A DNA stretch of 39,783 nt from a virus (Duplodnaviria > Heunggongvirae > Uroviricota > Caudoviricetes). The translations under genes were made by a program, and so were the position numbers. The stretch is from the IMG/VR virus record IMGVR_UViG_2706794673_000014. One strand, 5' to 3'. Shown piece after piece: positions 2,904 through 39,589 of the stretch (its first letter is position 1; the number at the start of each line of letters is the position of its first letter). A model generated the notes under the pieces. That model worked only from the letters and a program-made list of their open reading frames with translations, searched no databases and had not been told where the DNA came from.

Positions 2904-4958
2904 TTACGCGTTATTCACTTCCACCACGATACTGTCAATCAGTACCGGGTAAGTCGCATTTTTAGTGATATCGGTCACGCGCAACTTGTCTGCCGTAAAC
3001 GTGCCGACCGGAGACTGCGACAGCATGAATGGTGTCCCGTCCTTACCATCAATGACCGGCGTCACCTCAATACTGTTGTTACCGGCAAAACGGAAGCCCA
3101 GCGTATGCCATTCGTTATTAAATGCGCCGAATGACCCCAGCTTCGTGTTCTGCGCCGTGTTTCCTTTGTGATACATCACGTTAAGGTCTGTGGCATCGCT
3201 CTGTACGTAGAACGATGCCAGCAGGTTATGACCGGCATTTCCTTCCAGAGTAACCCCTTGCGGCAGGGCAGAAACCGGCCAGTACAGCGCCAGTGCGTAC
3301 TGATTAGCCGTAAGCGCGCCATCGAGTTTAAAACGACAACTGACAAGACCACCTTTACCCAGCAGGTCCGCACCATTACCAGCATCATGCTCAAGGTACC
3401 AGGGGGCTCTTCCTGTTTCCTTGGTCAGTTTCATTGCCTTACCCCCGCTGGCTCCGGCATCATCCACGATTTGAGCCTTGCCACCTCCGGCAGCCCAACC
3501 CTGTGGTGTCAACCGTCCTTCAGACTCAGATGCCCGGTAAGCAAATAGCGTACTCATCGTCGTGGTGTCTGCGGGTGGCGTGGACGGTTTTGATGGTGTA
3601 TCAGGTGACGGCTTCTCATCCGGTGGTGTCACGGTCTGCCCACGCATCAGTTCAGCCGTGCGCCCTGCATGGAGCATAATAGCTGAGGCCAGACGGTCTG
3701 AAATGACGCCCCTGCGTGCCCATGAGCTGAAATGGCTGTCACGCTGTGTCGAAACAAAACTGCCCTGGGTTCGGGATGCTGCACCGTAATACCCGACAGC
3801 CACAATATCCGGGTCTTCCGCCGGAGCATTCGTTGGCGTGCTCTGTCCATTCTCATCCGTCAGGAACGGTACAAAGAAAATTTTCTGTGCTTCCTTGCCT
3901 TTGTAGCCACCGTATACTGCCTCATATTTATCGGTGCCAGCGTTTTTCCAGTAATACGTGGTATCACCGCAAATCCACGGCACCGTGGTGGCATTTCCAC
4001 TCACGCACTGCGCAGCAAGCGGAGCCAGGTCAGTTCTGAACTGCTGAACCATGGCCGTGAATAAACTATTATGCTGCTGGCTTCCTGAGGCAAGGTCTGC
4101 CTCTCCCTGCATCCAGACCACAGCCAGAAGTTTGTTTTTCGGGTTTTTCGCCAGCGCGACTTTGGTGCGGCTTACCAGGTCCTGATACAGAGGTTTACCG
4201 GCCCCCCAGCGTGAAGAATCAGCGGAAGCACCGCTGGCCTCACTGAATGAGCCGTCGGCTCCAGTGGTGAATGCTGACCCGCCACGACAACAGGGCACCA
4301 GAAGTATCCCGGCATTCTGTGGGATATAGGGAAGCAGTTTTTTGGCAATATGCAACCCCTGACCGACAGTCCCGTACTGGCCTTTTGCCAGATCAGCTTT
4401 CGGGTGGTTTATCCCGCTCATATCCTGAACATCATGCAGGCAGTGGTCTGCCGGAATGATGTCGTTGTATGTACACGACGTACCGTTGGGCGTTACCGTA
4501 CTGCGGCGTGCCAGTTGCTTAATGCGTGGGTCCGGGCGGTCAAACGAATCCGGTAACGGCAGCCCCTCGCCGTAGGCCATGCCATTTGACTGACCCGCGA
4601 GAATGACAACAAAGTAATATTCCGGCTCTGAACTGCTGCCATTCGTGCTACCGGAAGGCCCGGCGTTATCCGGTGCATTCCAGTCGGAGGGCGTGAGCGT
4701 TCCGGCCACGTCAGATGTGATTGGAATGATGCCAGTCACGCCTGAACTGGTGATTTCTGCACTGGGATTACCGGATACCGGCATTACCCATAATGGCTCT
4801 TTCGTGCTGAAGCGGATCACGCAGTCTGCGAAGGTGATCCCCCCTTTATTACCCGAAGGGCGGAAAGGGCTTTCAATAAATGCCACCGTGCCACCGGCAA
4901 CCTTGACTGAAAACTCTCCGGGCATGGCGGAGAGCATTTTCCACTTGGAGTCTGACAT
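2904..4958 (-). CDS. SGNH-hydrolase sialate O-acetylesterase-like protein (NanS/NanS-p-like), 684 aa, with Pro/Thr linker and C-terminal putative carbohydrate-binding domain
   Basis: Motif YYFVVILAGQSNGMAYGEGLPLPD and downstream blocks (NDIIPADHCLHDVQDMSG, LLVPCCRGGSAFT, HFSSWARRG) match recalled E. coli NanS (YjhS); linker TPPDEKPSPDTPSKPSTPP. Confidence 0.75.
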   Translation of the reverse strand: MSDSKWKMLSAMPGEFSVKVAGGTVAFIESPFRPSGNKGGITFADCVIRFSTKEPLWVMPVSGNPSAEITSSGVTGIIPITSDVAGTLTPSDWNAPDNAGPSGSTNGSSSEPEYYFVVILAGQSNGMAYGEGLPLPDSFDRPDPRIKQLARRSTVTPNGTSCTYNDIIPADHCLHDVQDMSGINHPKADLAKGQYGTVGQGLHIAKKLLPYIPQNAGILLVPCCRGGSAFTTGADGSFSEASGASADSSRWGAGKPLYQDLVSRTKVALAKNPKNKLLAVVWMQGEADLASGSQQHNSLFTAMVQQFRTDLAPLAAQCVSGNATTVPWICGDTTYYWKNAGTDKYEAVYGGYKGKEAQKIFFVPFLTDENGQSTPTNAPAEDPDIVAVGYYGAASRTQGSFVSTQRDSHFSSWARRGVISDRLASAIMLHAGRTAELMRGQTVTPPDEKPSPDTPSKPSTPPADTTTMSTLFAYRASESEGRLTPQGWAAGGGKAQIVDDAGASGGKAMKLTKETGRAPWYLEHDAGNGADLLGKGGLVSCRFKLDGALTANQYALALYWPVSALPQGVTLEGNAGHNLLASFYVQSDATDLNVMYHKGNTAQNTKLGSFGAFNNEWHTLGFRFAGNNSIEVTPVIDGKDGTPFMLSQSPVGTFTADKLRVTDITKNATYPVLIDSIVVEVNNA

Positions 4959-5030
4959 CGTCTTTTCTGCCTGTTTCTGAATTAAACAGAGTCAGAATAG
5001 CGACCGCTGAAAAATATGTGTTTTGCGGAA

Positions 5031-5063
5031 ATTCAAAAAAGCGTCACGGTACTTTTGGTGACG
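5031..5063 (-). terminator. Putative intrinsic terminator just after gin (6-bp GC-rich stem, then TTTTTT on the minus strand)
   Basis: Stem CGTCAC/GTGACG at 5042-5047 and 5058-5063 overlapping gin stop; plus-strand A-run 5035-5040. Confidence 0.45.
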
Positions 5064-5616
5064 GAGCTGGTGAGGCAGGAAAATAACGATAAAGGGTGGA
5101 AAGGCCAATATCAAATATCAGTGCGATTTGTTTACGGGACTCGCCATTAGCCAGCAAACGGGCGATTTGCTCCCGCTCTTTCTCTGTCAGTTTCTGAGGT
5201 CTGCCGCCATGACGCCCCTGAGCACGGGCAGCAGCAAGACCCGCGCGTGTACGTTCAATAATGAGTTCCCGCTCCATTTCCGCCAGCGCGCCCATTATAT
5301 GGAAAAAGAAACGTCCCATGGGAGTGGATGTATCAATATTGTCCGTAATGCTGCGGAAGTTAACGCCGCGTTGCCGGAGTTCTTCTGTTAAAAGGACAAG
5401 GTGCTGCATACTGCGTCCAAGGCGATCCAGTTTCCAGACCAGCAGGGTATCCCCTGGCCGGAGTCGCTTTAATGCGCGTTTAAGTCCGGGACGCTCCCTT
5501 GTCTTACCGCTTATTCTGTCTTCGAAAAACAGCTCACATCCTGCACATTCCAGCGCATTTCTTTGTAGCGCCGTATTCTGGTCATTTGTTGACACCCTGA
5601 TATACCCAATCAGCAT
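5044..5616 (-). CDS. gin: Gin/Hin/Pin-family serine DNA invertase
   Basis: MLIGYIRVSTNDQ...LLVWKLDRLGRSMQHL...GRFFFHIMGALAEMERELIIERT closely matches recalled Mu Gin; sits beside the invertible segment. Confidence 0.93.
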   Translation of the reverse strand: MLIGYIRVSTNDQNTALQRNALECAGCELFFEDRISGKTRERPGLKRALKRLRPGDTLLVWKLDRLGRSMQHLVLLTEELRQRGVNFRSITDNIDTSTPMGRFFFHIMGALAEMERELIIERTRAGLAAARAQGRHGGRPQKLTEKEREQIARLLANGESRKQIALIFDIGLSTLYRYFPASPAPSPKVP

Positions 5617-15354: not shown

Positions 15355-15765
15355 TTACTGGACACGGGTACTGGTGGCGCTGGCGAACTTCGCGGAGATA
15401 TCACCACCACCGTCAAGCGAGGCCGGTTCACTGCTCCAGGCCTTCGTCATCATGTGGACTTCACCGGTATCGGCCANNNNNNNNNNNNNNNNNNNNNNNN
15501 NNNNNNNNNNNNNNNNNNNNNNNNNNNNNNNNNNNNNNNNNNNNNNNNNNNNNNNNNNNNNNNNNNNNNNNNNNNNNNNNNNNNNNNNNNNNNNNNNNNN
15601 NNNNNNNNNNNNNNNNNNNNNNNNNNNNNNNNNNNNNNNNNNNNNNNNNNNNNNNNNNNNNNNNNNNNNNNNNNNNNNNNNNNNNNNNNNNNNNNNNNNN
15701 NNNNNNNNNNNNNNNNNNNNNNNNNNNNNNNNNNNNNNNNNNNNNNNNNNNNNNNNNNNNNNCTT
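15355..15765 (-). CDS. Tail tube protein (only C-terminal ~40 aa visible; remainder in N-run 15477-15762)
   Basis: Open frame ending ...GGGDISAKFASATSTRVQ with stop at 15355-15357; located between sheath and chaperone. Confidence 0.4.
   Translation of the reverse strand, partial: KXXXXXXXXXXXXXXXXXXXXXXXXXXXXXXXXXXXXXXXXXXXXXXXXXXXXXXXXXXXXXXXXXXXXXXXXXXXXXXXXXXXXXXXXXXXXXXXXADTGEVHMMTKAWSSEPASLDGGGDISAKFASATSTRVQ
15477..15762. other. Run of N (unsequenced or masked)
   Basis: Read directly. Confidence 1.
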
Positions 15766-15768
15766 ACC

Positions 15769-17280
15769 TCACAAAATGAAACGGATCTGCGCGGCCATGA
15801 AGCGGAACTGGTTAACCAGATCCGGTGTACACATCACATCCAGACGGTTACGNNNNNNNNNNNNNNNNNNNNNNNNNNNNNNNNNNNNNNNNNNNNNNNN
15901 NNNNNNNNNNNNNNNNNNNNNNNNNNNNNNNNNNNNNNNNNNNNNNNNNNNNNNNNNNNNNNNNNNNNNNNNNNNNNNNNNNNNNNNNNNNNNNNNNNNN
16001 NNNNNNNNNNNNNNNNNNNNNNNNNNNNNNNNNNNNNNNNNNNNNNNNNNNNNNNNNNNNNNNNNNNNNNNNNNNNNNNNNNNNNNNNNNNNNNNNNNNN
16101 NNATCCAGATAGCTGGGATCGATTTCGCCGTATGCATTCTGACGGTACATCGTCACCTGACGTTCAATCTGCACCACATCCGCGGCCGCGACGGTCACCG
16201 TGGACATGCCGGTATAAAGCAGGCTGTTTCGCTCTTCCCGCGTCAGACGATCCGGTGCTTCAGGTGCCATACGGGCAGGCAGCGCCAGTGTCTGTAATGG
16301 TCGGGCCGGATCCGTTGACAGGGAGGGCGCACAGACCGCACAAATGGAGGCAGCCCAGACATAATCCGGCTCTGGTGCTTTAGGAATAGAAGTGCAGGTA
16401 AACAGGAAGTCATTACGGGATTCACCAAAACTGGTTGCCGTACCGAAGGTGCCGGTATGCGCCATCCAGACCATACCGTCCGACATTTTTACCGGTCCCC
16501 AGCGTTTCAGCAGTTCATCCGCCAGAATTTTGAGATTTGCCGCATCCTTATAGGGCATGACGATGTAGTTGTACTGACGATTCCCCATCCCTGAGACGCT
16601 ACGGGTGATATCGGGGTTTGTTGCCTTCTGTGTTGGCGCGACGAGCTCCAGCGTAAGACCGGCCGGTGTAGTTTCACCGTCATAATAGTTCACCCGTAAA
16701 TCATGAGCTGAGCATTCACCGATAAAGCGGGCGTTAACCCCCATGCTGCCTTTAAGTCCTTCAGCATTATCACCACTGACTTCAGCTGCGATAGCAGTGA
16801 ATGGCGCATCAGTGTCAGCGTTAATGACCTTNNNNNNNNNNNNNNNNNNNNNNNNNNNNNNNNNNNNNNNNNNNNNNNNNNNNNNNNNNNNNNNNNNNNN
16901 NNNNNNNNNNNNNNNNNNNNNNNNNNNNNNNNNNNNNNNNNNNNNNNNNNNNNNNNNNNNNNNNNNNNNNNNNNNNNNNNNNNNNNNNNNNNNNNNNNNN
17001 NNNNNNNNNNNNNNNNNNNNNNNNNNNNNNNNNNNNNNNNNNNNNNNNNNNNNNNNNNNNNNNNNNNNNNNNNNNNNNNNNCTTGTGAAGCTCGGGTAAT
17101 ACGTACTGGTACATCAAGCTGACCGCGCCCCTGAATGGTAGTGTCTTTCATTGCAGCCTGACCAAACAACAGTACCGCCTGACGCTGTGGTGGAGTGCCG
17201 GTCACGGCCATTGAATTATTGATTTCAATCTGTACCAGCGGAATGCGATTGTTATCGCCGATATAATCAAAGTTAATCAT
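15769..17280 (-). CDS. Contractile tail sheath protein (Mu L-like); interrupted by two N-runs
   Basis: N-terminus MINFDYIGDNNRIPLVQIEINNSMAVTGTPPQRQAVLLFGQ is typical of sheath N-termini; C-terminal frame ends ...AAQIRFIL at 15769; frames differ across gaps. Confidence 0.75.
15853..16102. other. Run of N (unsequenced or masked)
   Basis: Read directly. Confidence 1.
16832..17081. other. Run of N (unsequenced or masked)
   Basis: Read directly. Confidence 1.
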
Positions 17281-29195: not shown

Positions 29196-29699
29196 TCATG
29201 GTGTTCTCTGAGTCAGCGTAACCGTGAGGAAAAGGGGGCAGGATTTGCGGAATATCANNNNNNNNNNNNNNNNNNNNNNNNNNNNNNNNNNNNNNNNNNN
29301 NNNNNNNNNNNNNNNNNNNNNNNNNNNNNNNNNNNNNNNNNNNNNNNNNNNNNNNNNNNNNNNNNNNNNNNNNNNNNNNNNNNNNNNNNNNNNNNNNNNN
29401 NNNNNNNNNNNNNNNNNNNNNNNNNNNNNNNNNNNNNNNNNNNNNNNNNNNNNNNNNNNNNNNNNNNNNNNNNNNNNNNNNNNNNNNNNNNNNNNNNNNN
29501 NNNNNNNNNNNNNNNNNNNNNCCGCCTGAGCAGGTTCAATCCCCTGACGGTGCAGTTCAGCACTGATCACATCAACCAGGTCCCGCAGCGTGCCGGGCCA
29601 GTTCTTTTTCAGCTCATCATCAGGAATATCATCCAGACGGTCAATCAGCGCGTGCAGCTGTTCGCTGTCACCAAACATGCTCATCTGTGTTTCAGCCAT
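29196..29699 (-). CDS. Mor/C-family transcription activator; only the N-terminal ~59 aa (29521-29699) are readable, the rest lies in N-run 29258-29520
   Basis: N-terminus MAETQMSMFGDSEQLHALIDRLDDIPDDELKKNWPGTLRDLVDVISAELHRQGIEPAQA resembles recalled Mu Mor; position between gemA and lys. Confidence 0.6.
   Translation of the reverse strand: MAETQMSMFGDSEQLHALIDRLDDIPDDELKKNWPGTLRDLVDVISAELHRQGIEPAQAXXXXXXXXXXXXXXXXXXXXXXXXXXXXXXXXXXXXXXXXXXXXXXXXXXXXXXXXXXXXXXXXXXXXXXXXXXXXXXXXXXXXXXXXXIFRKSCPLFLTVTLTQRTP
29258..29520. other. Run of N (unsequenced or masked)
   Basis: Read directly. Confidence 1.
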
Positions 29700-29769: not shown

Positions 29770-30282
29770 TTAACGGGGGAATGATTTTTCATACAGCCTG
29801 CAAACACGCTCATAACTCATCACTGCACGTTCCGACATATCCAGGGCTGCCAGCATTTTGCGGCGGTGCCAGCGTTTGAGACGCTCCAGCACATCAGAGG
29901 CCAGCGCGGGTTGTTGCTCCAGCCACTGCCAGTTAGCCACACCTTCGCCGTCGTTCTGCGCGGCCGTCTGCGATTTCACCCAGCGGTTAAGGGCCGTTTC
30001 CCCGCCATCAGAGATAAATCCCTGCCGGTGCATCACTTTCCAGATGGCGCGAATTTTGGCGGTCACCGTACCCGGTTTTAAGGCCCGGTTAACCGGCTTC
30101 TGACGCACTTTAAAACCGCGTTTTTTGAAAACATCCAGCACGCGGGATAACTCACCGGGTGACATATCACGGCAACTGGATTTGCCGGTGGCTGCCAGCA
30201 GCGCGGATGTATAGGTATCATGGTCAAGCTGTAGATCGCGTTTTGCGACATGTATTAAGGTAATCAGGGAAGCGCGATTCAT
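29770..30282 (-). CDS. gemA: GemA-like regulatory protein (Mu gp16 family)
   Basis: N-terminal LITLIHVAKRDLQLDHDTYTSALL motif typical of gp16/GemA; position upstream of mor. Confidence 0.8.
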   Translation of the reverse strand: MNRASLITLIHVAKRDLQLDHDTYTSALLAATGKSSCRDMSPGELSRVLDVFKKRGFKVRQKPVNRALKPGTVTAKIRAIWKVMHRQGFISDGGETALNRWVKSQTAAQNDGEGVANWQWLEQQPALASDVLERLKRWHRRKMLAALDMSERAVMSYERVCRLYEKSFPR

Positions 30283-30294
30283 TATCGTGGCTCC

Positions 30295-30324
30295 ATAAAA
30301 AATGGGCGGTGTTACCGCACCGCC
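30295..30324 (-). terminator. Hairpin (GGCGGTG/CACCGCC) followed on the minus strand by a U-run, 18 nt upstream of gemA start
   Basis: 7-bp stem at 30305-30311 and 30318-30324, 6-nt loop; plus-strand A-run 30297-30302. Confidence 0.4.
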
Positions 30325-30352: not shown

Positions 30353-30592
30353 ATGTCAGATATAAAAAATGCACTTGATGTTGCCGCATTCACAATGGCT
30401 GGAAATCTTATGGTAACCCTGTTCGATAAGGGGCTGATTTCCCGTGAGGAGGCAATACATATTATCAATCTCGCTCAAAAAAACTCTACCCCGGAAAATG
30501 CAGAAGATATCCAGGATGGCTCATATATTAATACCGACTGGCATTTCGACAATCTCCGGGCCTGTATGGGGATTACCGCTGAAAAAGATTAA
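30353..30592 (+). CDS. Hypothetical protein, 79 aa, opposite strand to the surrounding early operon, AT-rich
   Basis: ATG at 30353 with AAGGA 8 nt upstream; GC visibly lower than flanking phage DNA. Confidence 0.6.
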   Translation: MSDIKNALDVAAFTMAGNLMVTLFDKGLISREEAIHIINLAQKNSTPENAEDIQDGSYINTDWHFDNLRACMGITAEKD

Positions 30593-30860
30593 AAATTTTT
30601 GCATAATGTTCAGATGTAAGAATTGCTGAACCATCAACACCGAGCCTACGGCGAACGTATTCCTCGCGGGCTATTTTATTATCCAGAGATACAGCATCCT
30701 TAATCAGGTTAATCTCCCGCTCCATTATCAAAAGGGCTTCTCTGGCTGCAAGATTTTCTTTTATCGCATATTCGATAATGTCCCGCATACGTTCAAGCAT
30801 GCCGATTTTAGCCAGTTCTTCGTCGATAGATTTAGGCGCAAATTTGATTTCTTTTTCCAT
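30573..30860 (-). CDS. Hypothetical protein, 95 aa, predicted helical; convergent with 30353-30592 and overlapping it by 20 nt
   Basis: ATG at 30858-30860 with GAGGA upstream; AT-rich. Confidence 0.5.
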   Translation of the reverse strand: MEKEIKFAPKSIDEELAKIGMLERMRDIIEYAIKENLAAREALLIMEREINLIKDAVSLDNKIAREEYVRRRLGVDGSAILTSEHYAKIFNLFQR

Positions 30861-30861
30861 A

Positions 30862-31005
30862 TTATTCATCCTCACAATTTATACATGCAGTGTCGTCGCC
30901 CATATCGCAGTGGTTACATTTTATCTCACCACAATGTGGGCACTCTTTCAGATACTCCGGGTCCTCATTTCCACAGGTGGGACATTCAACAATTTGCTCA
31001 TCCAT
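30862..31005 (-). CDS. Small zinc-ribbon protein, 47 aa, four CxxC pairs
   Basis: Translation MDEQIVECPTCGNEDPEYLKECPHCGEIKCNHCDMGDDTACINCEDE derived by hand; below the ORF-track size cut-off. Confidence 0.5.
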   Translation of the reverse strand: MDEQIVECPTCGNEDPEYLKECPHCGEIKCNHCDMGDDTACINCEDE

Positions 31006-31330
31006 TATGTATCCCCTGTAATTCCGGCAAGGCCGAAAGATGGCACCAGTGCGTCACCTGTCCGTCCTCATCTTCAAGGCAGGCTCCGGTTTCTTCATCA
31101 ATAAAAAAGCCTTCATACCCCATATGGCCGATGCGCAGTTCCTGTTGGTCACCATACTGAACAATCAGCACGACAGCCTCCATATCAGGCGGAAATGCGT
31201 CATCCAGTGAATGCCAGGGATAACCGCGCAAATCCCCGAAATAAACGCCGGTCAGCGTTCCGCCACAGAGCGGCATTCCGGCGGCACACACAAGAGGTTC
31301 ATCTGATTCAACAAATAAGGTCGTTATCAT
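30998..31330 (-). CDS. Hypothetical early protein, 110 aa
   Basis: ORF in early operon; no motif recognised. Confidence 0.5.
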   Translation of the reverse strand: MITTLFVESDEPLVCAAGMPLCGGTLTGVYFGDLRGYPWHSLDDAFPPDMEAVVLIVQYGDQQELRIGHMGYEGFFIDEETGACLEDEDGQVTHWCHLSALPELQGIHNG

Positions 31331-31878
31331 GGCGTTAACTCCCGTAATACAGCGTCCTCGGCAGTCCGGCGACGGTAATAAACTGCGTGAGCAGAATGTT
31401 CAGATATTCCAAACTTTTCGCCAATTTCCCGGAATGACAGACGGCGTGGGTAATCGGAATCACGCAGCTCACGTATAAGACGTACATCATCATCAGATAT
31501 GCGCGTGCCGGGGCGTAACTCTCCGCACTTTGTTAATCCAGCACCAATCATTCCTGCCCGACATCTGACAGAATCTTTATTACGTCCGAGATATTCTCCC
31601 ATTTGCTGGCAGGTCATTGTTCTGGCATTTTTTCGAATAAACTTATCTTCATCAGGTGTAAATCTTGGGTGTTTATATTTCAGTAACTCCGGGTATGAAC
31701 TGCGCAATACACCAGTCCGGTTATATACAGCCCAGACAGTTCTTTTTATTCTGGCAGCAATATCCTTAACCGGGGTGGATGAATAAAGCGCAATCAGCAG
31801 CGCATCTTCTTCAGGTGTCCACGGACGGACATGAGCGGGGGCGCGACCTTTTAGTCCCATGGGTTGTAATTTCATCAT
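31327..31878 (-). CDS. Hypothetical DNA-binding protein with three tandem helix-turn-helix-like repeats (GcrA/SANT-like)
   Basis: Repeats WTPEEDALLIALY..., FTPDEDKFIRKNA..., ISDDDVRLIRELR... each followed by a putative recognition helix. Confidence 0.55.
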   Translation of the reverse strand: MMKLQPMGLKGRAPAHVRPWTPEEDALLIALYSSTPVKDIAARIKRTVWAVYNRTGVLRSSYPELLKYKHPRFTPDEDKFIRKNARTMTCQQMGEYLGRNKDSVRCRAGMIGAGLTKCGELRPGTRISDDDVRLIRELRDSDYPRRLSFREIGEKFGISEHSAHAVYYRRRTAEDAVLRELTP

Positions 31879-31881
31879 GCA

Positions 31882-32397
31882 TCACCCCCTGACTCGCTTT
31901 TCAGCAGCATAAAACTCATCAGACAGTATTTCGGTCATTTTCTGTTTTGCGGGTTTTACGCCGCACTGAAGGTAAATCACATCGTCAACGCAGAACCACT
32001 TCACAGGGCCAAACAGGATTGCCGAGAAATCAATACCCAACCAGAACAACAGCGCATCGGTTCTGGCATACGTGACGGGCGAATATTCACGCCACAGACT
32101 GTTCAGTTCATCAGAGGCAACACGCAGGGTTTTAGGGATACGTGATGTGCGCGGTGTGCAGCTCCAGCCATTCGACGCAGTCGGTTTTCGCCATAAGTCG
32201 CGATGAAAAGGATATTTGTCCTCCGTAAAACGCAGTCCCTTAAAGTAAAATCCACTGATACCGGATACAAATACCGACCGGCACGCAACATTCAGCACGG
32301 CCTCAAGGCGTTTTGCCTCATCCTTAACTTTCTGGCAGTCCTGCTGGTATTTTTGCCACGCAGCCAGCGCGGAAGGGTTTGATGTTTTAAAGAACAT
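31882..32397 (-). CDS. Hypothetical early protein, 171 aa
   Basis: ORF in early operon; no motif recognised. Confidence 0.5.
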   Translation of the reverse strand: MFFKTSNPSALAAWQKYQQDCQKVKDEAKRLEAVLNVACRSVFVSGISGFYFKGLRFTEDKYPFHRDLWRKPTASNGWSCTPRTSRIPKTLRVASDELNSLWREYSPVTYARTDALLFWLGIDFSAILFGPVKWFCVDDVIYLQCGVKPAKQKMTEILSDEFYAAEKRVRG

Positions 32398-32930
32398 TAC
32401 GCCACCTCCGCAGATATCCCGGCAGGCGCTGCTGTCCGGTCAACAATCAGGTAGCGCAGAACATGTTCAGTGATATTCCAGCCGCTTAAACCGCAGATAA
32501 TGACGCCCAGGCGTATGTCGATATACGCCATCACAAACTGGGGCACGCCTTCTTTCATGGCCTGCTCATCAACTTCAGCCACCACATAAACGGTTTCACA
32601 GGTCAGAACGCCCTGAGCAAATTCCCACGCCATCGACGGAATATCATGCCCCTCAATCCATGGCAGGGATTTTCTGAAGCCGCACCACTGAACATCATCA
32701 GCCGCAGATTCCTGGCTGCATTTGCGACGAACCGGCTGCACCGGGCGGGGACGCGGAATATCATAAAAACCGTTACATTCCGTCAGCACGCCTGCATCAA
32801 CCGCATCACGCAGAAAATAAACCATGGAGGATGGCGGCATATTCATTTTTTCAGCCAGTACACCGCAGGTCAGGCGGCCATAAATACACAGCCAGTTTTT
32901 AACCCCTTCAAGCACTTTTGCATCAATCAT
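32397..32930 (-). CDS. Hypothetical early protein, 177 aa
   Basis: ORF in early operon directly downstream of gam. Confidence 0.5.
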   Translation of the reverse strand: MIDAKVLEGVKNWLCIYGRLTCGVLAEKMNMPPSSMVYFLRDAVDAGVLTECNGFYDIPRPRPVQPVRRKCSQESAADDVQWCGFRKSLPWIEGHDIPSMAWEFAQGVLTCETVYVVAEVDEQAMKEGVPQFVMAYIDIRLGVIICGLSGWNITEHVLRYLIVDRTAAPAGISAEVA

Positions 32931-33075
32931 GATTTATTTCCCCACCACATTATTAATGACGATATAAACGTATTTCATATTTCTTAACCCTTATTTTCTG
33001 TTTTCAGGCGCAAGCAGTCCCCTGACGCGAGCGCCATAATTAAAATGAAGTGATATTTAATTGATTAATGCGGTG

Positions 33076-33606
33076 TTATTTATTCAGTCCGGCGTCCTGT
33101 TCAAAAGGCTCGACATAAAAACTTTCAGCGCCTTTATTCACCTTGATACCGGCAATGCCTTTCACAGCATCCGGCTCCGCCAGGACGGCTTCCTTGTTCA
33201 CTTCCTCTTTCGTGCGGATGAAACGCTCAAGCCCCATACGGCGCAGCATTTCAATCACACCTTCCACATCACGGCTGACGCTGCATGATGGCGTTCCCAG
33301 CCGCCATGACACCGTTCCGGTGGTCAGATTGGCTGTTTTGGTTTTGCCGCCGTTCGTCAGCTCATCACGGTTGGTTTTGCACCAGTCCTGAATCCCTTTA
33401 AAAAGCACTTTGATTTGCTTTTTAAGATTTTCAATCTGCGGCGTATAACGGGCGGTGATTTCTGCCACTTCGTCATTCATCGCCGTTTCCAGGCGCAGCG
33501 CCTCTCGCTGAATATCTCCCAGGGTGCGGATATCACGGCTGACTTCTTCCCGGGTCTGCGGTGCCGCCTCGGCTGCGGCCTTTAATTTTGTAACGCGTTT
33601 AGCCAT
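33076..33606 (-). CDS. gam: Gam host-nuclease inhibitor (Ku-like DNA end-binding protein)
   Basis: MAKR...IRTLGDIQREALRLETAMNDEVAEIT...WCKTNRDELTNGGKTKTANLTTGTVSWR...FIRTKEEVNKEA closely matches recalled Mu Gam. Confidence 0.92.
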   Translation of the reverse strand: MAKRVTKLKAAAEAAPQTREEVSRDIRTLGDIQREALRLETAMNDEVAEITARYTPQIENLKKQIKVLFKGIQDWCKTNRDELTNGGKTKTANLTTGTVSWRLGTPSCSVSRDVEGVIEMLRRMGLERFIRTKEEVNKEAVLAEPDAVKGIAGIKVNKGAESFYVEPFEQDAGLNK

Positions 33607-33915: not shown

Positions 33916-34473
33916 TTACCCCTGTTGATTAAATTCATTACCGTTAATAACCCCGGAAGCCATGCCTCTGTCTTTCATGAATGCACTGGCTTNNNNNNNN
34001 NNNNNNNNNNNNNNNNNNNNNNNNNNNNNNNNNNNNNNNNNNNNNNNNNNNNNNNNNNNNNNNNNNNNNNNNNNNNNNNNNNNNNNNNNNNNNNNNNNNN
34101 NNNNNNNNNNNNNNNNNNNNNNNNNNNNNNNNNNNNNNNNNNNNNNNNNNNNNNNNNNNNNNNNNNNNNNNNNNNNNNNNNNNNNNNNNNNNNNNNNNNN
34201 NNNNNNNNNNNNNNNNNNNNNNNNNNNNNNNNNNNNNNNNNNNNNNNNNAACCGAATCATGGCATTAAAGGCTTCTTCCTCCGTCACCGCTTCCGGTATC
34301 CCCGGAACCAGTAACTGCTCCTGTTCATCACGTCCATGACGCGCCATAACCTCAATCACATGCCGTACCGTGGCAGGCTTTCCGGCAACTATCGGCAATG
34401 CACCTTCCGGCAGGACGTAACCAAACTCAATAAGACCACTCGACCACGCCCATGCAATGAGATTTTTTTTCAC
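33916..34473 (-). CDS. Hypothetical early protein, interrupted by N-run 33993-34249
   Basis: N-terminal 74 aa readable; remainder within gap. Confidence 0.45.
   Translation of the reverse strand: MKKNLIAWAWSSGLIEFGYVLPEGALPIVAGKPATVRHVIEVMARHGRDEQEQLLVPGIPEAVTEEEAFNAMIRXXXXXXXXXXXXXXXXXXXXXXXXXXXXXXXXXXXXXXXXXXXXXXXXXXXXXXXXXXXXXXXXXXXXXXXXXXXXXXXXXXXXXXXASAFMKDRGMASGVINGNEFNQQG
33993..34249. other. Run of N (unsequenced or masked)
   Basis: Read directly. Confidence 1.
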
Positions 34474-34474
34474 C

Positions 34475-34741
34475 TCACACCTCCCAGTAAACCGTGCAGC
34501 CGCTGATGCGGGTGGCCTTCACACGGCGGCGCAGGCCGTTGGTCTGTATGGTGATTTCAATTTCACCGGTTCCCTGCACGTTGCCTACCGGCGGCGTGGT
34601 TTTCAGTGCAAAACGTTGCGGATAGCGCTTACTGCGTTCCAGTACCGCACCGGCAAGTTCGGTCAGACGGCGCGCGCTGTTCAGGGAGTCGAATAAATTC
34701 ATTTTGTTACCGCAGGATTGCATATTCATATAACACCTCAT
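34475..34741 (-). CDS. Hypothetical early protein, 88 aa
   Basis: ORF in early operon. Confidence 0.45.
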   Translation of the reverse strand: MRCYMNMQSCGNKMNLFDSLNSARRLTELAGAVLERSKRYPQRFALKTTPPVGNVQGTGEIEITIQTNGLRRRVKATRISGCTVYWEV

Positions 34742-34969
34742 TTAGCTGACTTGTTTCGCACCAACAGAACGGCATATTCCGCTGTAAACTTCTGTCGCAC
34801 CTTCGCGATCAAGTCCGGCAGATATCACCATTCGTGTGCGGTCATTAAATTCAAAAAGTAAATCGCCACATTCTTTATTTTCGGCCAGTGAAATCACCTT
34901 CACGTTATCGAAATTAACCAGGTAAAAGCGTCCGTAAATATCAGGAATATTAAATACCGCCATAATCAC
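34742..34969 (-). CDS. Hypothetical protein, 75 aa, at the position and size of Mu kil
   Basis: First gene after B; size ~74 aa as in Mu kil; position only. Confidence 0.4.
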   Translation of the reverse strand: MIMAVFNIPDIYGRFYLVNFDNVKVISLAENKECGDLLFEFNDRTRMVISAGLDREGATEVYSGICRSVGAKQVS

Positions 34970-35907
34970 ACCTGTGAGAGTAATTCAGGGTTGGTATAAA
35001 CCTCTTTAAAGGCCGCATTAATATGTTTTTCTGTCAGCGCCGCGCCTTCACCGCTGGCGGTGAGCCACGCCTGGTTAAGCGTATGTGTCAGAACGCGTAA
35101 CGCTCCCGGCTTTTCAGCGATAGCCTGCATGACGGCCAGCTCGGCCTCACCACTGATCCCCCACGCCATGGCAATGGCCAGCACATCCGCCTTTTTGGCC
35201 TTGCGAAGTTGTTTTGTACGGGCAAGACGGCTGAACAGGCGCGATAAATCATCAAAGGCGCGGCGTCCACCTTTAAACAATCCGCGCGGGTTACCAATAA
35301 GCACCATCCCGATCCCCGTGGCGTCCTGAATTGCCCGGAGTTGCTCCAGACCGTCAATACCAAGATGATCCGCCTCATCCACAATCACCAGTCCACGCGT
35401 TCCCATCAGGCGACGGCGGATGGCGCGGGATAATGCCCCTTTGTTCGCGCGGGTGTAATCAATCCCCAGCGCATCGGCCAGCTCCAGCAGACACTCCGTG
35501 ACGCTGGAGTGCGCGGGTGACAGGGTGATCATCCAGGTGTTTGGTTGCTCCTGGCAGTAATTACGGGCAGTGGCCGTTTTACCCACACCCGGTACGCCCA
35601 CAATAACGTTAATACAGCCCATCAGGCGAACCGCCTGAAACAGTGCGCGCAGCTCCTGGACTGTCTGAGTTTCCACAAACTGCGGCGGTTCCGGCAGTGC
35701 GCTTTGTTTATTCCAGTTCTCATACCAGGAGCGCAGGGAAGCAGCCACAGCAGCGTTATCGCCTTTATATTTTCCCTTACGGAAAGCCGATAATGTGCCG
35801 TCGGAAATTCCCGCCTCTCTGGCGATGGCATACTGCGTCAGTACGCCGCCATCAATAAGTTCATCAATGGTCTTGATTACATCGTTAATATCGGTCATAT
35901 TATTCAC
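34966..35907 (-). CDS. B: MuB-like AAA+ transposition target-capture ATPase
   Basis: Walker A VGVPGVGKT, LVIVDEADHLG Walker B, ...KPGALRVL...; closely matches recalled Mu B. Confidence 0.92.
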   Translation of the reverse strand: MNNMTDINDVIKTIDELIDGGVLTQYAIAREAGISDGTLSAFRKGKYKGDNAAVAASLRSWYENWNKQSALPEPPQFVETQTVQELRALFQAVRLMGCINVIVGVPGVGKTATARNYCQEQPNTWMITLSPAHSSVTECLLELADALGIDYTRANKGALSRAIRRRLMGTRGLVIVDEADHLGIDGLEQLRAIQDATGIGMVLIGNPRGLFKGGRRAFDDLSRLFSRLARTKQLRKAKKADVLAIAMAWGISGEAELAVMQAIAEKPGALRVLTHTLNQAWLTASGEGAALTEKHINAAFKEVYTNPELLSQV

Positions 35908-35980: not shown

Positions 35981-38068
35981 TCAGGCCAGCGGATCACTTT
36001 CTTTTAATTTCGCTTCGAGCAGTTGCAATCCCCGCTGGAAATTACGCTCGTATTCTTCATCAGGTTCATCGTCAGCGACCGGTTGCTGAACGGTCACCGT
36101 ATTACCCACAGGGCGGTATATGTTTTCCAGCCAGGGCTCCTGCGGCTTGTGCTCCAGCACGTTGACAACCTCATCCTCGGCATCACGGATTTTTTCCTCT
36201 GCGCGTTTACGCATGCCTTTAAGGCGCTGCTGCTGTTTGTAGTATTCCGCGCTGACAGGGAAGGCTTCGCGTTTATTGCCGTCCCATACCGCCTCGCAAA
36301 TCACGCTGCCATCCGGGCGGCGCACGGTAATTCGTTCGGCATCATGAATGTCATAGCTGATAAGTACCTTACGGCCATGCTCGTCACGCAGCTCGGGCGC
36401 GTAGTAAATATTATTCAGCCAGCGTATTTCACAGCGTCTTACAGGGCGCTCCACCATCGGCCGGAACATATCCCGCAGTTCAACATCGGACAGCCATTCA
36501 ATTTCCGTGTCCTCTTCCGCCAGGCGTTTTTTTCTGAACTCCGCCGGGCTGTAATGTTTACCGTTCGGCTTCATGGGTAATTCATCGTGCGGCCGGTTGT
36601 TGTACCACTCAACACCGTCACGAATGGCATCAATCAGTTCAGACCAGGACGGTAAATCACGCATCGCTGACTGCTGCCGGGCGTTCAGCCGTTTGCCCTG
36701 TTGCAGGGCACTGAATGCCGAGCGTAAATCGCGGTTGGTTTTACGTAACGTCTCGCGATCTGCTCCTTTCCCGAAATAGGTGCGGTATTTACGGGCTATG
36801 CGCATCGGTAATGTGCGGTTAAGCCGTTCGATAATGCCCCGTCCCTGCGGATTACCGGCAATCCCTGTCGGGTGATTAATCCCCAGTCGTGGCAGTATCC
36901 CCACAATCTCCTTATCCAGGACGTCGGCGGTTTCCCCGGAGCCATTATCCGAGTAATACAGAAACGGTTTGCCATGATGGCGAATACCGTGCTGTATGGC
37001 ACCGGCTACGGCGAAAACATTTTCAGCCAGGTCAAGGCTCCAGCCCACCACAAAGCGCGTGCCACCGTCGATAACAAAGGTCACTTCCGGTGCGAATGGC
37101 CGCCCGTGAACCGGGTGCGCGCATTTCAGCTTCATGCCGTGACCGTCACCAATCCAGACATAATTCACCGGCATTCTGGACCAGTCGCGGCGCGTGAATC
37201 CCTCAAGCTGACGGTATTCACTGCCAGTTACCCGGCCTTTTTGTTTCACCACTTCCGGCAGTTTCTTCATTGCGCGGCGAATGGTGTCATAAGAGGGCAT
37301 GATATCGAGCATATAAGGCTCATCAGCGTGCCGGTGCTGCCATTCAGCAACAAAATCCTCGTAAGCCTCGGTCATTGGTCGGCCGTTTGACTGGCGATAC
37401 TGCGCCAGAAATTCGGGCAGCCAGTTAATATCTTCGGCTTTTATTTCCTGGCGTTTACCCGGTGCCAGTAAAAGCAGGCGTTCAGCGGCGTTCTGTGCCT
37501 TGTTAAAGGCCGCAATCCAGCGTTTCAGCGTGATTTCACTCAACGCGCGGCTGTTTCCCTTTTTGGCGTTCGCCGTCTCAACCATTGCCACAATGCGCTC
37601 GTCCAGTTGTGATCGTGCCAGGCTGTTAACGAGGAACCGGATAGCTTTAGCGCAGCTGAAACCGGGTTGTTGCGTGAATTTCAGCACCTCACTGACGATC
37701 GCAATGCGTGCGTCTGCCACCTGGCGCTGGTTTTCAGTCAGGGCATTGAGGCGTTCGACCATCAGTTGTGGTGATCCGCGATATGCCTCCACCGCATCAA
37801 CCACGGCAGACGAGCGTCTGGCCTTTGTCACCACCGGAGCCGGTGATTCATCGGCTTTTTGCGTCATCAGTTGCAGGGCATAACGTTCGCGTAATGCCTG
37901 CTGTGTCACTTCAGGTAAACAGTCAATGCTGTATTCAAAACCTTTAGCGCCTTTCTTGCGGCGTCTGCTGGTTTCGCTGGTTGCATACTTCCTGATTGAA
38001 TAGCGAACGCCTTGCTCCGTTCCCGGCATCCCCGGTAATCCAACCAGTTCTTTAACTGAAGCAAACAT
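35981..38068 (-). CDS. A: MuA-like DDE transposase
   Basis: 695-aa ORF between ner and B; N-terminal end-binding-like region; length and order as Mu A. Confidence 0.93.
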   Translation of the reverse strand: MFASVKELVGLPGMPGTEQGVRYSIRKYATSETSRRRKKGAKGFEYSIDCLPEVTQQALRERYALQLMTQKADESPAPVVTKARRSSAVVDAVEAYRGSPQLMVERLNALTENQRQVADARIAIVSEVLKFTQQPGFSCAKAIRFLVNSLARSQLDERIVAMVETANAKKGNSRALSEITLKRWIAAFNKAQNAAERLLLLAPGKRQEIKAEDINWLPEFLAQYRQSNGRPMTEAYEDFVAEWQHRHADEPYMLDIMPSYDTIRRAMKKLPEVVKQKGRVTGSEYRQLEGFTRRDWSRMPVNYVWIGDGHGMKLKCAHPVHGRPFAPEVTFVIDGGTRFVVGWSLDLAENVFAVAGAIQHGIRHHGKPFLYYSDNGSGETADVLDKEIVGILPRLGINHPTGIAGNPQGRGIIERLNRTLPMRIARKYRTYFGKGADRETLRKTNRDLRSAFSALQQGKRLNARQQSAMRDLPSWSELIDAIRDGVEWYNNRPHDELPMKPNGKHYSPAEFRKKRLAEEDTEIEWLSDVELRDMFRPMVERPVRRCEIRWLNNIYYAPELRDEHGRKVLISYDIHDAERITVRRPDGSVICEAVWDGNKREAFPVSAEYYKQQQRLKGMRKRAEEKIRDAEDEVVNVLEHKPQEPWLENIYRPVGNTVTVQQPVADDEPDEEYERNFQRGLQLLEAKLKESDPLA

Positions 38069-38070
38069 AA

Positions 38071-38301
38071 TTACGCGACCTTACGAATGTAGCGGCTGGG
38101 CCAAATCTCCTCGGGCGGCACCCCCAGGCATTCCGCGATAATCCCCTCATACTTGGGAACATGGCGGTATACCGCGTTGTACAGATTGTTCTGACCCACG
38201 CCAGCTTTACGGGCCAGCGCCCTCATGCTTCCTTCTCTGGCTCTGACTTCCCCCAAAATTCTTTGAGGATGCCAATCAGGCTTAACTTCATTTCTCGCCA
38301 T
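38071..38301 (-). CDS. ner: Ner-like DNA-binding regulator
   Basis: ...DWHPQRILGEVRAREGSMRALARKAGVGQNNLYNAV...EEIWPSRY matches recalled Mu Ner (DWH...IWPSRY). Confidence 0.9.
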   Translation of the reverse strand: MARNEVKPDWHPQRILGEVRAREGSMRALARKAGVGQNNLYNAVYRHVPKYEGIIAECLGVPPEEIWPSRYIRKVA

Positions 38302-38486: not shown

Positions 38487-39032
38487 ATGAACAAGCAAAC
38501 AACAACATCTCTTTCTTTTCCTGGTGGTAGAAAAGAAAGCATTGCTGAGCGTCTGAAAAGGCTGATTGGCTCCCGCAGCGTCAGAGCTGCAGCAAGAGAT
38601 TGGGGGCTTTCATTTTCAACACTAAACAATTATCTGTCTCGTGGCACTGAGCCATCCTTAAGTGTCGCCCTTCAGATTGCGTCTATCGAAGGAGTAAGTG
38701 TTGAGTGGCTATGTGGATTCAGTGATGCATCACAAGTGAATCGGTGTGAGATCAAGGAAAATCAAGATGAAAGCAAGAAGATAATTATGACGATTATCAG
38801 CGCACTTGATGAAAAAGACTTAGAGCAGCTATCGAAAAATTTGGTTCTGAATGGAGCCAAGTACTTAGCTCGGTTGTTAGAGCCTGAAAATCAAGATCTA
38901 ATCCGCTTAGAAGGAAGGAAAAGAATAGCTGCATTACAGCTTGAAGGTATGTCTGACGAACGCGTCAGAGAGATTTTGGAAGAAACTGAGAGAAGTCGCA
39001 AATCTAACGCGGTAGAACCAAAAGCGGGTTAA
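38487..39032 (+). CDS. Prophage repressor (HTH DNA-binding protein, functional analogue of Mu c)
   Basis: Divergent from ner, reads toward the phage end as Mu c does; HTH-like AAARDWGLSFSTLNNYLSRGTEPSLSVALQIA; AT-rich. Confidence 0.75.
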   Translation: MNKQTTTSLSFPGGRKESIAERLKRLIGSRSVRAAARDWGLSFSTLNNYLSRGTEPSLSVALQIASIEGVSVEWLCGFSDASQVNRCEIKENQDESKKIIMTIISALDEKDLEQLSKNLVLNGAKYLARLLEPENQDLIRLEGRKRIAALQLEGMSDERVREILEETERSRKSNAVEPKAG

Positions 39033-39105: not shown

Positions 39106-39286
39106 AGTATCAAATGAGTTGCCGATTTTATAATAAATGACTAATTATTGCACAATCGGTATCAAATAGACCTTATCCGCACATCTAGCCATCACCTGTT
39201 TTATTTCAGTATCTTACAGGTGATTTCACCTCCTTTCACTAAACCCCTTGTCGGTATCAAATGATTCACCTGGTTATATGTCGCCA
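39106..39286. repeat. Left-end (attL-like) terminal repeat region: one GGTATCAAA motif at the terminus (39253-39261), two more 95 and 147 bp inward (39158-39166, 39106-39114)
   Basis: Inverted copies of the right-end motif; spacing (one terminal site, gap, two internal) matches Mu attL L1-L3. Confidence 0.7.
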
Positions 39287-39589
39287 GTCGATACCTTCCA
39301 GCAGCATCGCCAGCTGCGCCTGTGTAAGGAACACTTTGCCATCACGGGCTGACGGCCAGGCGAAGCGCCCACGCTCCAGCCGTTTGGTCAGGAGGCACAG
39401 TCCGTCACTGGTGGACCACAGCAGTTTAACCTGACTGCCGCTGCGGCCCCGGAAAATGAAAACATGGCCGGACATGGGATCGTCTTTCAGCGCCGTCTGT
39501 ACTTTCGCAGCCAGGCCGTTGAAGCCATTTCTCATATCGGTGATACCGGCAACCAGCCAAATTTTGATCCCGGAAGGTAACGGGATCAT
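39266..39589 (-). CDS. tnpB: IS66-family TnpB (Orf2); C-terminus may be altered by the prophage junction
   Basis: MIPLPSGIKIWLVAGITDMRNGFNGLAAKVQ...LWSTSDGLCLLTKRLERGRFAWP typical IS66 Orf2; ATGA overlap with upstream orf at 39586-39589. Confidence 0.9.
   Translation of the reverse strand: MIPLPSGIKIWLVAGITDMRNGFNGLAAKVQTALKDDPMSGHVFIFRGRSGSQVKLLWSTSDGLCLLTKRLERGRFAWPSARDGKVFLTQAQLAMLLEGIDWRHITR

Follow-up and report, generated by a model that had tools for sequence, protein, structure and literature searches.

Orthologues of Mu gp11 and gp12 form a conserved, apparently coupled pair of early genes in a Mu-like Escherichia coli prophage

Mu is the model transposable phage, yet most of its semi-essential early genes, gp11 and gp12 included, are without an assigned function. 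What two mid-sized genes beside gam are, and what they might do, is the question raised by the early region of a Mu-like transposable prophage that fills the right-hand third of the window (the whole analysed stretch of 39,783 nucleotides, IMG/VR record IMGVR_UViG_2706794673_000014) and is read on the minus strand. A sequence-only reading of this DNA had picked out two ORFs, of 171 aa and 177 aa, beside a gam gene for a host-nuclease inhibitor, and had regarded them as candidate anti-defence or host-modulating genes among the non-essential cargo of Mu-like phages. Both ORFs exist on the minus strand, and their neighbour was confirmed as gam (Table 1). The two ORFs are almost certainly the orthologues of Mu gp11 and gp12, a translationally coupled, lineage-core pair that belongs to the early (Pe-type) operon of a Mu-like prophage of E. 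coli.

Table 1 Features of the prophage early region and their positions in the window, with the basis of each assignment. RBS, ribosome-binding site.
Feature	Position	Strand	Basis or remark
Repressor	38487-39032	+	Early region of prophage
ner	38071-38301	-	Early region of prophage
MuA-type transposase	35981-38068	-	Early region of prophage
MuB-type ATPase	34966-35907	-	Early region of prophage
Small ORFs, including a Kil homologue	34475-34741 (Kil homologue)	-	Between MuB-type ATPase and gam
gam (Mu Gam, Ku-like DNA-end-binding host-nuclease inhibitor)	33076-33606	-	Pfam Phage_Mu_Gam 5.5e-42; 58% identity to Mu Gam
gam-gp11 intergenic gap, 145 nt	32931-33075	-	Sequence; no ORF inside here
gp11 orthologue, 177 aa, ATG start	32397-32930	-	Mup11 orthology, phrog_1949, PF25754
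gp11 N-terminal domain (~residues 1-58)	32757-32930	-	Near-invariant across family; predicted winged-helix
gp11 C-terminal domain Gp11_C (residues 90-167)	32430-32663	-	Pfam PF25754; small alpha/beta
Predicted translational-coupling junction gp11/gp12	32395-32409	-	GGAGG RBS within gp11 end; TAATG overlap
gp12 orthologue, 171 aa, ATG start	31882-32397	-	Mup12 orthology, phrog_2314, PF26885 family
SANT/Myb-like putative DNA-binding protein, 183 aa	31327-31878	-	phrog_323 5e-53; next gene after gp12
Four further small ORFs, then an opposite-strand ORF	Downstream of gp12	Mostly -; last one +	Including 183-aa, 110-aa, 47-aa and 100-aa ORFs
gemA	29770-30282	-	Followed by mor and endolysin

The genes of this stretch follow one another as gam, gp11, gp12, two inserted genes, gp13, gp14, an opposite-strand gene and gemA, which is the order of Mu gp10 to gp16 with one insertion. 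The 47-aa ORF is Mu gp13 (79% identity) and the 100-aa ORF is Mu gp14 (50% identity); the comparison with Mu gave no counterpart for the 183-aa and 110-aa ORFs. [quoted passage not shown] As the upstream neighbour of gp11, gam is counted here outside the gp11-gp12 pair; the 183-aa SANT/Myb-like gene, which marks the start of a variable segment, also lies outside it. Dips in GC content at 15-17, 29-30 and 34-35 kb were considered as foreign islands and ruled out, being runs of N.

Homology searches identified both proteins as members of the Mu gp11 and gp12 families (PF25754/phrog_1949 and PF26885/phrog_2314, respectively). The gp11 protein is 68.4% identical to Mup11 over 100% of the query (tblastn; 68.8% in global alignment), matches phrog_1949 at 4e-105 over residues 1-176, and scores 139.2 bits with Gp11_C (PF25754), where the cut-off is 27; in this match residues 90-167 span the whole profile (positions 1-78 of 78). 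The gp12 protein is 55% identical to Mup12 over 99% of the query (tblastn; 54% in global alignment) and matches phrog_2314 at 1.2e-84 over residues 1-170; its membership of PF26885 (Phage_Mu_Gp12) follows from the precomputed assignment of cluster representatives that are 94% identical to it (P0001, P0002), together with the PHROG match, and a 99.4%-identical RefSeq copy is annotated as 'Mu-Gp12 family protein'. Full-length orthologues of both are present in Mu, D108, SfMu and Yersinia Mu-likes, and in the window, Mu and Salmonella Mu-likes gp11 lies between gam (or its substitute) and gp12. Given the full-length PHROG matches, the Gp11_C score, the full-length orthologues and a low dN/dS, both ORFs are real genes rather than chance ORFs. 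They are already catalogued, as RefSeq proteins and in Pfam families named after the Mu members, and nothing sets this copy apart. Homology to conserved Mu early genes, which might have counted against a host-interaction role, is clearly present; an established housekeeping role for those genes is not, and a literature search from the gene, family, anti-defence and arm/cim angles found no functional study of Mu gp11 or gp12.

The two genes are predicted to be a translationally coupled pair. The gp11 stop codon (TAA, 32399-32397) and the gp12 start codon (ATG, 32397-32395) share base 32397 in the sequence TAATG, and the GGAGG ribosome-binding site for gp12 sits within the 3' end of gp11; gp11 has its own ribosome-binding site, GGTGGGG, 9-10 nt before its ATG. 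The same one-base overlap occurs in Mu (6954) and in Salmonella Mu-likes (6001). All three genes, gam, gp11 and gp12, are on the same strand, only 3 bases separate gp12 from the next ORF, and a scan of the minus strand from gam to 30324 predicted no terminator-like hairpin. The sole promoter-like site in the gam-gp11 gap is a 9/12 match, and such sites are not commoner in the region than in shuffled sequence. Both the sequence and the known Mu early transcript are compatible with co-transcription of gam, gp11 and gp12. The gam-gp11 gap was also considered as a structured RNA element; because its RNA fold z-score is only -2.1, which is marginally stable, it is not read as one, and the candidate was dropped.

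By megablast, the phage falls among E. coli Mu-like prophages. The 1049-bp pair was found at an identity of at least 90% in 232 of 5426 complete E. coli genomes, at 274 places and in up to four copies per genome, and is 100% identical in strain 600029; MuB of the same lineage occupies 277 places in 233 genomes. The pair is under purifying selection: in a comparison with a 91%-identical copy inside an Stx1 phage, dN/dS is 0.13 for gp11 and 0.19 for gp12. Identity to Mu is 69% for gp11, 58% for Gam, 54% for gp12, 48% for MuB, 44% for GemA, 44% for the endolysin and 26% for MuA, so that gp11 is better conserved than MuA, MuB, Gam, GemA and the endolysin, and gp12 lies in the range of Gam. This higher identity of gp11 is not taken as recent exchange, because gp11 compared with Mu gives a dN/dS of 0.145 with dS saturated at 1.6. 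From the signature of purifying selection, the 274 against 277 places, the conservation of gp11 and the position of the variation, which lies beside the pair, gp11-gp12 behaves as a lineage-core unit, not as variable cargo. The part of the sequence-only reading that saw variable, non-essential host-interaction cargo in these genes therefore fits poorly: the pair is fixed and conserved, and the hypervariable slots, in the gam-gp11 gap and downstream of gp12, flank it.

Fixation holds within the E. coli lineage, and presence across Mu-like phages at large is another matter. A Mu-type Gam is present in 149 phage records, of which 113 are Pseudomonas phages and only 16 carry gp11; gp12 is found in 27 phage records, some of them without a Mu-type Gam. 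The pair is thus core to the Muvirus-like phages of enterobacteria (Escherichia, Shigella, Salmonella, Yersinia) and missing from other lineages of transposable phages. The gp11 family itself is restricted to enterobacterial Mu-likes: 222 homologues were found, and the 120 listed are all from Escherichia or Salmonella, at 60-96% identity; in tblastn with the Gp11_C domain alone, matches were confined to the Muvirus set.

The variable region begins immediately 3' of gp12. Only 14 of the 232 genomes share the whole of the next 1.3 kb, and the 183-aa neighbour is only 73% identical in a copy whose gp12 is 92% identical. On the other side, the gam-gp11 gap is without an ORF both here and in Mu, where it measures 98 nt; elsewhere it is an insertion slot, with an extra ORF of ~180 aa in O157/STEC copies and in Salmonella Mu-likes. 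Many copies in the 90-95% identity band (~213 in all) carry this extra ORF, the insertion being found in every listed example (including O157, O111, O103 and O91 STEC). In one Salmonella Mu-like (L028), Gam is swapped for DUF3164, with gp11-gp12 and their one-base overlap intact. Conversely, the commonest type of Gam match seen in E. coli (60-80% identity) stands without gp11 and gp12 in the single locus examined, that of the ABU 83972 prophage.

The extra ORFs of the gam-gp11 slot are homologous to each other, and are assigned to phrog_2260 in O157 and to DUF5420 or an unassigned protein in Salmonella. HMMER gave no link between the extra O157 ORF and gp12; in profile-profile comparison, the slot ORFs match the gp12 family over the full length and collinearly (hhalign probability 87%, E 4e-6). 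The DUF5420/phrog_2260 proteins are thus probable remote paralogues of gp12 by profile comparison, and, if this match holds, gp11 has a member of a gp12 superfamily on either side in those phages.

For gp12 itself, the AF2 model (pLDDT 92.1, pTM 0.83) predicts a single compact alpha/beta domain, for which no solved structural relative was found; sequence and profile searches of the PDB returned chance matches only (uracil-DNA-glycosylase inhibitor MCUGI at E 1.5). An exhaustive profile search gave 209 clusters at 50% identity for the family. Among the 150 of these that were listed, nearly all full-length homologues are single-domain proteins of 156-228 aa that match from end to end; the shorter entries are fragments, and P0195, P0196 and P0198 were left out of the gp12 model alignment as chimeric or frameshifted fragments, one of them a gp12-Mor deletion fusion. 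Residues W69, G121 and E156 are invariant across the family, G54, P82, R83, P107, I157, E161 and A165 are near-invariant, and the motifs YYKT, LWTxP, QRPR and EILGSE(F/Y) are shared; no active site was recognisable among the conserved residues, and broad alignments contain no conserved stretch of 7-10 columns. The protein has a pI of 9.3 here, but since the pI in the family spans 5.4 to 9.4, gp12 is not consistently a basic DNA binder.

The gp12 family occurs widely without gp11, and, among some ten genomic contexts that were read, it sits in DNA replication, recombination and repair neighbourhoods of several unrelated phage types. On metagenomic and genomic contigs the settings are as follows. 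In L022, the start of the gp12 homologue overlaps the end of a DNA pol A gene, with ATP-dependent ligase and Mre11/Rad50-like genes next; the homologue lies 26 bp 3' of a Toprim primase in L021, immediately 5' of an ATP-dependent DNA ligase in L025 and immediately 5' of NinB in L011; it comes right after an SMC-like ATPase in L016, with a PDDEXK nuclease close by and then Dam- and Dcm-type methylases; it has SNF2 helicase, DHHA1 and NAD-dependent ligase genes around it in L023, and it lies in the repressor-integrase stretch of an integrase-type temperate prophage in L013. Among transposable phages without a Mu-type Gam, gp12 lies between B and gemA in Pseudomonas VW-6B and in Klebsiella ST405-OXA48phi1.1, the latter carrying DUF3164; Klebsiella Lastavirus and Vibrio phages also have members of the family in their early regions.

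Set beside the fixation of the pair, these contexts lead us to favour, tentatively and at somewhat short of even chances, an early accessory module that acts on phage DNA replication, recombination or repair and is not swappable anti-defence cargo. In such a module gp12, a small alpha/beta protein whose phage-specific family many unrelated phages set beside polymerase, primase, ligase or recombination genes, would act as the generic effector, and gp11 would be its lineage-specific partner; the TAATG overlap would keep the two at a fixed ratio of synthesis. The argument from neighbouring genes is a weak one for gp12, since DNA-metabolism genes abound in phage early regions in general and the contexts read number only about ten. 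Mu relies on the host replisome for its replication, and a polymerase-accessory role would have to take a different form there. For Mu, the module would suit a replication-boosting function of the 'arm' type, a link that is offered as a lead only; arm is presumably located to the right of gam. The replication-amplifying functions ('arm') of Mu lie between B and C (PMC10052514; PMC4553209), and in the literature searched no assignment of the old genetic functions arm and cim to an ORF was found. A bolder form of the proposal, in which the gp12 superfamily (PF26885 with its probable paralogues DUF5420/phrog_2260) would be an unrecognised, widespread accessory factor of phage replication, recombination and repair, with a fold that has no solved relative, and would work with gp11 as 'arm' in Mu-likes, is doubtful.

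Next in likelihood comes the view that gp11, gp12 or both bind and neutralise a host nuclease, restriction or abortive-infection component early in infection, as an anti-defence or host-nuclease/repair-inhibitor module that complements Gam; we hold it to be rather unlikely. It draws on the position of the pair next to gam in the early operon, on the dispensability of the SEE region in the laboratory (PMC4553209), on the acidity of gp11 (pI 4.9), and on the gp12 homologues that stand beside DNA methylases and nuclease-type genes in the repressor-integrase stretch of integrase-type temperate prophages. The patchiness across lineages, with gp11 and gp12 missing from many Gam-encoding transposable phages, would suit it as well, as would the probable gp12 paralogues that come and go next to gp11, a pattern seen in arms-race genes. 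The pair is, however, fixed in its own lineage, gp11 is more conserved than the transposition proteins and has a low dN/dS, and in lytic phages gp12 is coupled to a DNA polymerase gene or adjoins primase or ligase genes. Nor do the proteins resemble known defence or anti-defence proteins in PADLOC, PDB and fold comparisons: NCBIfam and PADLOC scans of both returned nothing (in PADLOC, 0 families for either at E<=0.1), and the solved anti-defence proteins compared (Ocr, ArdA, lambda Gam, gp5.9, Acr, Tad, Gad and others) gave no similarity of sequence or fold.

The architecture of gp11 bears on a further alternative, in which gp11 would bind DNA through a winged helix and regulate transcription of phage or host genes, with gp12 as an unrelated neighbour. 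The family alignment shows a near-invariant stretch of ~58 N-terminal residues, a variable linker and a conserved C-terminal domain. In the AlphaFold model, of low confidence overall (pLDDT 59.5), the N-terminal part is built as three helices (pLDDT ~62) and a wing, a low-confidence winged-helix fold; the linker is disordered, and the C-terminal alpha/beta domain is mostly at pLDDT 70-88, with one 10-residue block at 42. Sequence and profile searches of the PDB with gp11 gave chance matches only (MIF at E ~0.5-1). The Gp11_C domain was also compared with DUF551, which, like the nearby 110-aa ORF, it had been presumed to resemble; hhalign gave a probability of 0.1%, and the likeness was dropped. 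The regulator reading is improbable: apart from the low confidence of the model it leans on, no HTH family matched gp11 in Pfam or NCBIfam at E<=0.1, the winged-helix part is acidic (pI 5.0, against 4.9 for the whole protein), and its putative recognition helix has a single basic residue (one Arg). In Mu, c, Ner, Mor and C already explain the transcription cascade. Binding to protein or RNA is another known use of winged helices, and the top hits SelB and APC2 are examples. That gp11 and gp12 are strictly coupled by one base suggests that the two proteins work together. Within the accessory module that we favour, the acidic winged-helix domain of gp11 would more likely bind a protein or a nucleic-acid structure than act as a classical basic DNA-binding regulator; gp11 may be an adaptor built on a winged helix and not a DNA binder of the classical repressor type.

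A host-toxic or two-component module of acidic gp11 and basic gp12 (kil-like shut-off, toxin-antitoxin or superinfection exclusion) would account for the overlapping genes and the opposite net charges (pI 4.9 against 9.3) in an SEE region that holds other host-killing functions such as the Kil homologue, but it is very improbable: PADLOC gave no matches, both proteins exceed the typical size of type II toxin-antitoxin partners, gp12 is widespread without gp11 and not consistently basic in its family, and, since the prophage repressor keeps the lytic early operon off, as Mu biology suggests, the two proteins would not protect the lysogen.

The early accessory module thus stays the reading that we prefer for gp11-gp12, a conserved coupled unit rather than variable cargo. 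The finding is real but ordinary for this window; the residual interest lies in the gp12 family, with its confidently predicted fold, the lack of a solved relative and its wide spread in phage replication and recombination modules.

Among known systems, Mup11 (NP_050615) is the same full-length, collinear protein (176 aa, against 177 aa in the window) in the same place directly after gam, with the same one-base overlap with gp12; its linker (residues ~61-88) differs from that of the window protein, and there is otherwise nothing notable between the two. According to the Mu genome annotation, Mup11 unites three formerly separate reading frames, E10, E11 and E12. The comparison gives gp11 of the window a name and no mechanism. 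Mup12 (NP_050616; formerly E13) agrees with gp12 of the window in position, coupling and full-length similarity, the window protein being five residues shorter at the C-terminus.

The winged-helix domains of MarR/ArsR repressors, SelB (WH), Z-alpha and APC2 (WHB) have no detectable sequence kinship to gp11; the dimerisation helices of MarR/ArsR are missing from gp11, and its C-terminal domain is unrelated to theirs. Mu Gam, the Ku-like DNA-end binder and RecBCD antagonist, is a neighbour in the same early operon without homology to gp11 or gp12, and it does not co-vary with them, Gam being found without the pair in 100+ phage records and the pair with DUF3164 in its stead. The DUF5420 (PF17457)/phrog_2260 proteins, at 180-192 aa near gp12 in size, share with the gp12 family an N-terminal YFK motif and a C-terminal EI(K/L)xSE(Y/F) motif; they form a separate PHROG and Pfam family, and are absent from the window and from Mu.

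The gp11-gp12 unit is retained in two loci without an intact gam. In the Salmonella Mu-like prophage L028 (4162-6519) a DUF3164 protein stands in place of Gam, yet the unit is the same, one-base overlap included; the pair is therefore independent of the end-protection gene carried by the phage. In L010 (4193-4722), the locus of E. coli O157 AR-0430, gam carries a frameshift and its annotation is that of a pseudogene, while gp11 and gp12 are intact, with 96% identity to the proteins of the window.

The gap between gam and gp11 (window 32931-33075) is a slot for insertions. An additional ORF of 180–192 aa (phrog_2260/DUF5420) is located there in O157/STEC copies and in Salmonella Mu-like prophages; the three examples listed in the table are mutually homologous, and in hhalign they match the gp12 family from end to end (probability 87%, E 4e-6). 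Judged from these alignments, the slot ORFs are probably remote paralogues of gp12, by which gp11 would be flanked.

In a metagenomic protein of 212 aa, P0196, about 87 N-terminal residues of a gp12 homologue are joined to a Mor activator. The simplest explanation is deletion of all sequence between gp12 and mor in a degraded prophage; a functional fusion is disfavoured against this reading.

Several genes of the window, including mor and one ORF upstream of gam, are broken by runs of N. The apparent GC dips in the composition profile are caused by these runs; they are artefacts and were rejected as foreign islands. The IS66-family TnpB gene is situated immediately beyond the prophage end that holds the repressor, and the Mu-like element therefore lies next to, or inside, an IS66-type element.

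Features surrounding the gp11-gp12 unit, masked sequence and slot ORFs of the comparison loci.
Feature	Sequence	Coordinates	Strand	Remarks
Variable segment	Window	30573-31878		Begins directly after gp12
183-aa SANT/Myb-like putative DNA-binding protein	Window			First in variable segment; phrog_323; no Mu counterpart
110-aa protein	Window			Variable segment; very acidic (pI 4.05); weak DUF551 match; no Mu counterpart
gp13 orthologue	Window			Next in variable segment; 47-aa zinc ribbon
gp14 orthologue	Window			Variable segment; 100 aa
79-aa ORF	Window	30353-30592	+	Opposite strand; phrog_32893; Mu gp15 position, directly upstream of gemA
Terminator-like hairpin	Window	30305-30324	minus	Adjoins 79-aa ORF
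IS66-family TnpB (Orf2) gene	Window	39266-39589	minus	Pfam PF05717, 1.2e-37
Runs of N (masked)	Window	about 15470-16110, 16800-17090, 29255-29529, 33990-34260
Slot ORF	L010	3553-4095
Slot ORF	L029 (further comparison locus)	4922-5470
Slot ORF	L028	4892-5470

Downstream of gp12, the entire variable segment of 1.3 kb is common to only 14 of the 232 E. coli genomes that carry the pair at ≥90% identity. At the Mu gp15 position strain AF39 has a DUF2513 gene instead of the 79-aa ORF, and this position upstream of gemA looks like a swappable moron site.
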